Sequence record: MK327940.1
Strand: one strand, 5' to 3'
DNA: 64,000 nucleotides
Source of the DNA: Escherichia phage vB_EcoM_G29
Part shown: positions 9,387 through 9,845 of the stretch, piece by piece
Numbering within the stretch: the first letter of the stretch is position 1
How the letters are laid out: every line of letters starts with the position of its first letter
Translations under genes and position numbers: made by a program
The notes under the pieces: model-generated
Seen by the model: the letters and a program-made list of their open reading frames with translations, nothing else
Database searches by the model: none
What the model was told of the DNA's origin: nothing

Positions 9387-9845
9387 TTATTTTAAATCAT
9401 CTGCCCAATCGAGTTTAAGAGGCTCTTTGTATTCACGGTCAAGTACAACCGGAATTTGTACATCACCGCTAAATGATAAGGGCCCAACATTATAAGACAA
9501 TGTTATATGCGGTGTGTAATCATCAAAATCGTGTGTAGCACCTAGTGCCCGCGCATACATGTGTCGACAGCGCAGATATTCAGAATCTAGCACAAGTACA
9601 AGAGTCGATCCATCTTGTGTTTTCCACACTTCTAAATGTCCAGAAGAAGCTACTTCAAAGCTTCCACTCGATGGAACATATGGAACATTTACTCTTGAAT
9701 AACATATAGTCGAATGAATTTTTTCTCTAGGAACTGGATTAGGAACACGTAAAGAGCGCTGGAGTTCTTCCAGCGCGTCAAGTGTTAATTCTGAAAACTT
9801 AGCTGCTACATAAAGACCCGTTGAAAAGTCTTTAAATTCCATCAT
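9387..9845 (-). CDS. acb1: 2H-phosphoesterase, anti-CBASS nuclease Acb1 (T4 57B)
   Basis: 152 aa; two H-x-T motifs (KIHSTI and TPHITL); position directly upstream of 57A. Confidence 0.8.

Follow-up and report, generated by a model that had tools for sequence, protein, structure and literature searches.

Identity of the 57B open reading frame

An open reading frame (ORF) of 152 codons in the genome of Escherichia phage vB_EcoM_G29 (MK327940.1) raises two linked questions: whether it encodes the anti-CBASS phosphodiesterase Acb1, the product of gene 57B in phage T4, and whether it is part of the counter-defence cargo of a hyperplastic early region, as a sequence-only reading of this DNA had proposed. 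We addressed both in the 64,000-nucleotide stretch of that record that was analyzed as a whole (here called the window). The window comes from the genome of a T4-like Tequatrovirus; over its first 25 kb it matches Escherichia phage vB_EcoM_G4500 at 99.9% identity, with window position 9387 falling at position 73387 of G4500. The ORF listing of the window contains an ATG-start ORF of 152 amino acids plus stop on the minus strand at 9387..9845, in exact agreement with the coordinates and length that had been claimed.

The sequence-only reading had suggested an alignment to T4 Acb1 as a check, and when we ran it we found that the two proteins are 100% identical (152/152 amino acids; T4 gp57B, NP_049750.1, from the T4 reference NC_000866). 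The genes themselves differ at nine nucleotides, and all nine differences are synonymous in the minus-strand frame, showing this frame to be coding and under purifying selection. Two antisense ORFs lie within the gene on the plus strand (9545..9709 and 9559..9702) and look like chance occurrences, the substitutions relative to T4 all being synonymous on the minus strand.

Profile and structure searches gave the same answer. In Pfam at E <= 0.1, the only match was PF23474 (Anti-CBASS protein Acb1), with E = 2.7e-60 and a score of 202.7 bits (cut-off, 27 bits), covering the whole profile (1-144 of 144). A sequence search of the PDB matched residues 9-149 to the Acb1 of Erwinia phage FBB1 (7T26/7T27) at E = 4e-62 and a more distant solved Acb1 (9Q2G) at E = 0.004; a weak match to the Pam3 portal was treated as spurious. 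NCBIfam contained no family for the 152-amino-acid protein at E <= 1, a result that is uninformative because that library was built for bacterial and archaeal annotation. We concluded that the ORF at 9387..9845 is almost certainly acb1, gene 57B of a T4-like Tequatrovirus, and that its predicted product is a metal-independent 2H-family phosphodiesterase that degrades CBASS signals; none of our results spoke against this. The claim of an Acb1/57B identity with CBASS-signal degradation thus stands on the T4 identity, the PF23474 score and the 7T26 match. It is both correct and already known, as the earlier reading had itself said in calling the gene a known element: this is the ordinary, already characterized T4 gene 57B, and the protein is identical to the founding, laboratory-characterized member of the Acb1 family.

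Catalytic residues and fold

That reading had also placed two H-x-T/S motifs in the protein, and we located them at H44-S45-T46 (9708..9716, minus strand; codons 9714-9716 for H44 and 9708-9710 for T46) and H113-I114-T115 (9501..9509, minus strand; codons 9507-9509 for H113 and 9501-9503 for T115). Because two or more such motifs arise in 16% of shuffles of the Acb1 protein, the motif pair alone is weak evidence, and the case for acb1 rests on homology. In the FBB1 crystal structures, which have a 2H phosphoesterase fold, the HxT/HxT tetrad consists of H44, T46, H113 and T115, the bases of the substrate are stacked on Y12, W74, F107 and W147, adenine is read by E141, and residues 145-152 form a lid (PMC9117128). 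Every one of these named functional residues is present in the window protein, which extends to residue 152 and so includes the C-terminal lid.

The catalytic histidines were singled out at the start as the point on which the identification could fail, since their loss in an alignment would have spoken against it. A tblastn search of a phage collection with Acb1 matched 1485 records, with identities ranging from more than 99% to less than 60%, and from divergent homologues we built an alignment of seven sequences with 40-68% identity, comprising the window protein (Tequatrovirus) and those of Proteus phage SJ_PmiM (Bragavirus), phage MIZ3 (Krischvirus), Acinetobacter phage DLP2 (Lazarusvirus), Vibrio phage D483 (T4-like) and RB43 (Pseudotevenvirus), together with the FBB1 crystal sequence. 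H44 and H113 are present and invariant throughout, as are T46 and T115, and so are Y12 and P112; the identification therefore survives this check. The weakest tblastn match, in Pseudomonas phage psageK9, fell in a 600-amino-acid protein adjoining the terminase; it was treated as spurious and kept out of the alignment.

A single-sequence AlphaFold2 model of the 152-amino-acid protein had a mean pLDDT of 37.9 and a pTM of 0.31, values too low for the model to be used. We assign the 2H phosphoesterase fold with high confidence from the homology to crystal structure 7T26 (68% identity, E = 4e-62). FBB1 Acb1, solved as the apo form (7T26) and with 3'3'-cGAMP (7T27), shares that 68% identity over the crystallized region, and the two proteins align at the HxT/HxT tetrad, at Y12, E141 and W147 and along the C-terminal lid segment. 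They differ at two of the base-stacking positions, where FBB1 has F in place of the W74 and Y in place of the F107 of T4 and the window, and FBB1 has one extra residue after position 80.

The RB43 orthologue of 57B (1459-2082 of the RB43 segment that we fetched) departs further. It is 207 amino acids long, with a C-terminal extension of about 55 amino acids past the Acb1 domain, and its lid region is divergent and lacks an equivalent of W147; it may be a variant Acb1 architecture.

Proposed action of Acb1 and competing explanations

T4 gene 57B was found by activity-guided fractionation as a 3'3'-cGAMP-degrading enzyme and named Acb1 (Hobbs et al. 2022, PMC9117128). In the same work, cleavage was found to occur 3' of adenosine, independently of metal and via a cyclic phosphate intermediate, cGG, cA4 and 3'2'-cGAMP were not cleaved by the T4 enzyme, and an H44A/H113A mutant was catalytically dead. 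T4 lacking acb1 had a >300-fold defect on CBASS hosts and grew normally on hosts without CBASS (PMC9117128), and in a later transposon screen 57B/acb1 was dispensable on K-12 and depleted (conditionally essential) on a CBASS host.

By analogy with T4, the enzyme would act as follows. In an infected CBASS host, the host CD-NTase would make cyclic di- or trinucleotides able to trigger a cell-killing effector. Acb1 would take these into a U-shaped pocket shut by its C-terminal lid, stacking the bases on Y12, W74, F107 and W147 and reading one adenine through E141, and the H44/T46/H113/T115 tetrad would then cut 3' of adenosine via a 2',3'-cyclic phosphate intermediate. With the signal linearized in this way, the CBASS effector would never be activated. 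We infer that the window phage expresses and uses its acb1 as T4 does, the enzymology and the phage phenotype being those of the T4 literature.

A different identity is suggested by database labels. RefSeq calls T4 57B and many of its orthologues "RNA ligase," PHROG 755 does likewise, the 2H superfamily includes LigT, and a tRNA cluster lies ~1.7 kb downstream of acb1, a location that might point to the repair of tRNAs or of RNA ends. The gene might accordingly be read as a LigT-like 2'-5' RNA ligase or an RNA-repair cyclic phosphodiesterase. We consider this very improbable, because no LigT or 2'-5' RNA ligase profile was matched either in Pfam at E <= 0.1, where Acb1 was the only hit, or in NCBIfam at E <= 1, and because the identical T4 protein cleaves cyclic oligonucleotides biochemically and its deletion phenotype is CBASS specific (PMC9117128). 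Acb1 does share with the 2H superfamily of LigT and cyclic phosphodiesterases the two HxT/S motifs, metal-independent acid-base chemistry and a cyclic phosphate intermediate (PMC9117128), but a sequence match to LigT-type proteins is not detectable in Pfam, and the substrates are cyclic di- and trinucleotides that serve as immune signals, not RNA ends. The "RNA ligase" label has been passed on by homology, not taken from an assay, and reflects 2H/LigT superfamily kinship.

Anti-CBASS activity might also be accepted as the chemistry of the enzyme and yet not as its main natural use. The substrates of Acb1 include cAAA, and Hobbs et al. raise the possibility that the enzyme counters type III CRISPR systems that signal through cAAA (PMC9117128), so that other cA3-based signalling might be the principal target. 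Conversely, acb1 might be a net liability to the phage: Panoptes guard systems sense the depletion of cyclic nucleotides that Acb1 causes, both type I and type II Panoptes restrict Tevenvirinae phages with an intact acb1, and escape mutants carry inactivating mutations in acb1 (PMC13577387). To either of these we attach next to no weight, less even than to an RNA-repair role. Effects on type III CRISPR or Panoptes would be extra consequences of the same activity and not another identity, for T4 acb1 there is direct evidence of the CBASS phenotype (PMC9117128 and the transposon screen), and the gene is intact here, differs from that of T4 only synonymously and is full length in all 554 matching phage records, which argues that it is on balance maintained. 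Anti-CBASS cleavage of cyclic oligonucleotides is therefore the reading that we retain.

On that reading, the window phage is predicted to resist CBASS of the cGAMP, cUA and cAAA types and to be sensitive to Panoptes-type guards that sense cyclic-nucleotide depletion. Such predictions bear on host range and on the choice of phages for therapy and are not new biology. The nearest GenBank record, that of G4500, annotates acb1 as "hypothetical protein"; relabelling the "hypothetical protein" and "RNA ligase" records as Acb1 would be a useful annotation fix but otherwise matters little.

The conserved block upstream of acb1

The place of the gene in the genome is that of 57B in T4, as had been claimed. 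On the minus strand, gene 2 (11484-12308) and gene 3 (start at 11377) are followed by gene 1, which encodes dNMP kinase (10072-10797; Pfam DNMK, 6e-106), then by gene 57A, which encodes the tail-fibre assembly chaperone (9842..10072; Pfam PF17594 GP57, 2.7e-50, and T4 synteny) and is the immediate upstream neighbour, and then by acb1. T4 and five further T4-like (Straboviridae-type) phages share the 3-1-57A-57B order. From the ORF coordinates, 57A ends and acb1 begins within a shared ATGA, a 4-nt overlap of stop and start codons (9842..9845, minus strand; junction GAAGAATGATGG), an arrangement that suggests translational coupling of the two genes, and 57A and acb1 are probably cotranscribed. 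T4 has the same protein at the same site after 57A, with the same ATGA overlap and the same early-promoter/stem-loop sequence downstream, and differs in the nine synonymous substitutions, in a 57A product that is 4 amino acids longer and in having ipI in place of the two different internal-protein genes found downstream in the window. The length difference in 57A (76 amino acids here and 80 in T4) comes from an in-frame indel of 12 nt, which falls in a short, repeated motif (GATGAAG) immediately ahead of the stop codon at the acb1 start overlap.

A search for the T4 late-promoter consensus gave 24 matches in the window, where chance would give 10. One of them, TATAAATA at 10428..10435 on the minus strand, lies within gene 1 upstream of 57A and acb1. 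It may serve these two genes as a late promoter, which would fit the reported timing: in published data, T4 57B/acb1 expression is predominantly middle/late, and Acb1 activity appears ~15 min into infection (PMC9117128). A generic scan of 7700-11600 for sigma-70 promoters and terminators gave no more sites than shuffled sequence did, and only the specific T4-type early pattern was enriched.

The variable internal-protein locus downstream of acb1

That early pattern occurs directly after the acb1 stop codon, in a PeSL-like cassette at 9335..9374 on the minus strand that we recognized by pattern match, promoter scan, inverted repeat and membership of a direct-repeat family. The cassette runs GTTTACATA...GATACTAT and combines an early-type promoter (GTTTACA-N-GATACTAT, scored in the promoter scan as TTTACA-17-TACTAT with a TG) with a perfect 10-bp stem-loop (9335-9344/9355-9364) that spans the -10 element. 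Three early-promoter/stem-loop cassettes (9345-9374, 9014-9043 and 8716-8745) account for three of the six matches in the window, where 0.13 would be expected by chance, and they fit the consensus TTTACW-N17-TAYWAT given for promoter-early stem-loop (PeSL) elements by Comeau, Arbiol and Krisch, who describe these elements for the T4/PST pair as mediating modular shuffling in hyperplastic regions (PMC4122927). The cassette at 9335..9374 marks the border of acb1 with a variable internal-protein locus.

Two minus-strand genes, each behind a PeSL-like cassette, lie between these elements at the position that ipI occupies in T4. One encodes 85 amino acids (9056-9313) and the other 81 (8746-8991, with the real start probably at the Met of MKTYQEFIAE at 8979), and they match the PHROGs families "internal head protein" and "internal virion protein." All that the two proteins have in common with T4 IPI, IPII and IPIII is the N-terminal MKT(F/Y)(K/Q)EF (capsid-)targeting peptide. 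We regard them as candidate injected anti-defence proteins; T4 IPI, encoded at the same locus, is described as an anti-restriction protein that counters host defence (PMC4122927). In G4500 (6956-7501 of the G4500 segment that we fetched), the lysozyme gene e directly follows denV, and ipII and ipIII, which lie between denV and e in T4, are absent, so in the window phage the internal-protein genes seem to lie mainly at the ipI locus beside acb1. The window, of which 1-925 was considered here, appears to begin inside denV.

How far, then, does acb1 belong to this neighbourhood? Coverage of at least 80% is reached by the 697-nt segment 8690-9386 in 158 of the 544 matching phage records and by acb1 in 554 of 554. 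Because acb1 sits in a conserved block and is described in published data as expressed middle/late, it is not strictly "early-region cargo"; it is the last gene of the conserved 3-1-57A-57B block and abuts a variable, early-promoter-driven internal-protein locus. The proposal that the gene marks a hyperplastic early region with counter-defence cargo therefore holds for its surroundings, in view of the variability of 8690-9386, the early-promoter cassettes and the anti-restriction function of T4 IPI, but does not extend to acb1 itself, which is conserved and reported to be middle/late.

A 71-nt direct repeat with 86% identity (9332-9402 and 9001-9071, minus strand) carries the early promoter and runs on into the final four codons of acb1 and of the gene for the 85-amino-acid internal protein, as a consequence of which both proteins end D-L-K-stop. 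One might read from this that acb1 is no fixed core gene but sits at the outer edge of an anti-defence array made mobile by recombination, in which case exchange through PeSL elements could relocate acb1 or replace its C-terminal lid. We hold that to be very unlikely and keep acb1 as the end of the conserved block.

Other anti-CBASS genes and neighbouring loci

T4 has a second anti-CBASS protein, Acb2 (Vs.4, the naming of vs.4 as acb2 being taken from the literature), which counters the same defence but is unrelated to Acb1, being described as a signal-binding sponge and not an enzyme (PMC10312549). We did not find vs.4/acb2 within the window. The nearest relative, G4500, has a homologue with 95% identity to T4 Vs.4 at 61604-61870, ~2.1 kb to the left of the position that corresponds to the window start, and by comparison with this relative both known anti-CBASS genes of T4 are probably present in the window phage.

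The tRNA cluster of the window (6330-7716, minus strand) is unlike that of T4. It contains eleven Rfam-supported tRNAs, including tRNAs for His, Asn, Tyr and Met that T4 does not have, and is without the segB homing endonuclease gene. Between tRNA-Arg and the homologue of rnaD lies a 116-amino-acid ORF (6330-6680) at a place where T4 has no gene. At 6073-6166 on the minus strand, both ARAGORN and the G4500 GenBank record call a 94-nt "tRNA-Lys(ttt)." This segment lies in the counterpart of T4 rnaC (species 1 stable RNA) and scores below the threshold of the Rfam tRNA model; it is probably a tRNA-like small RNA and not a true tRNA-Lys.
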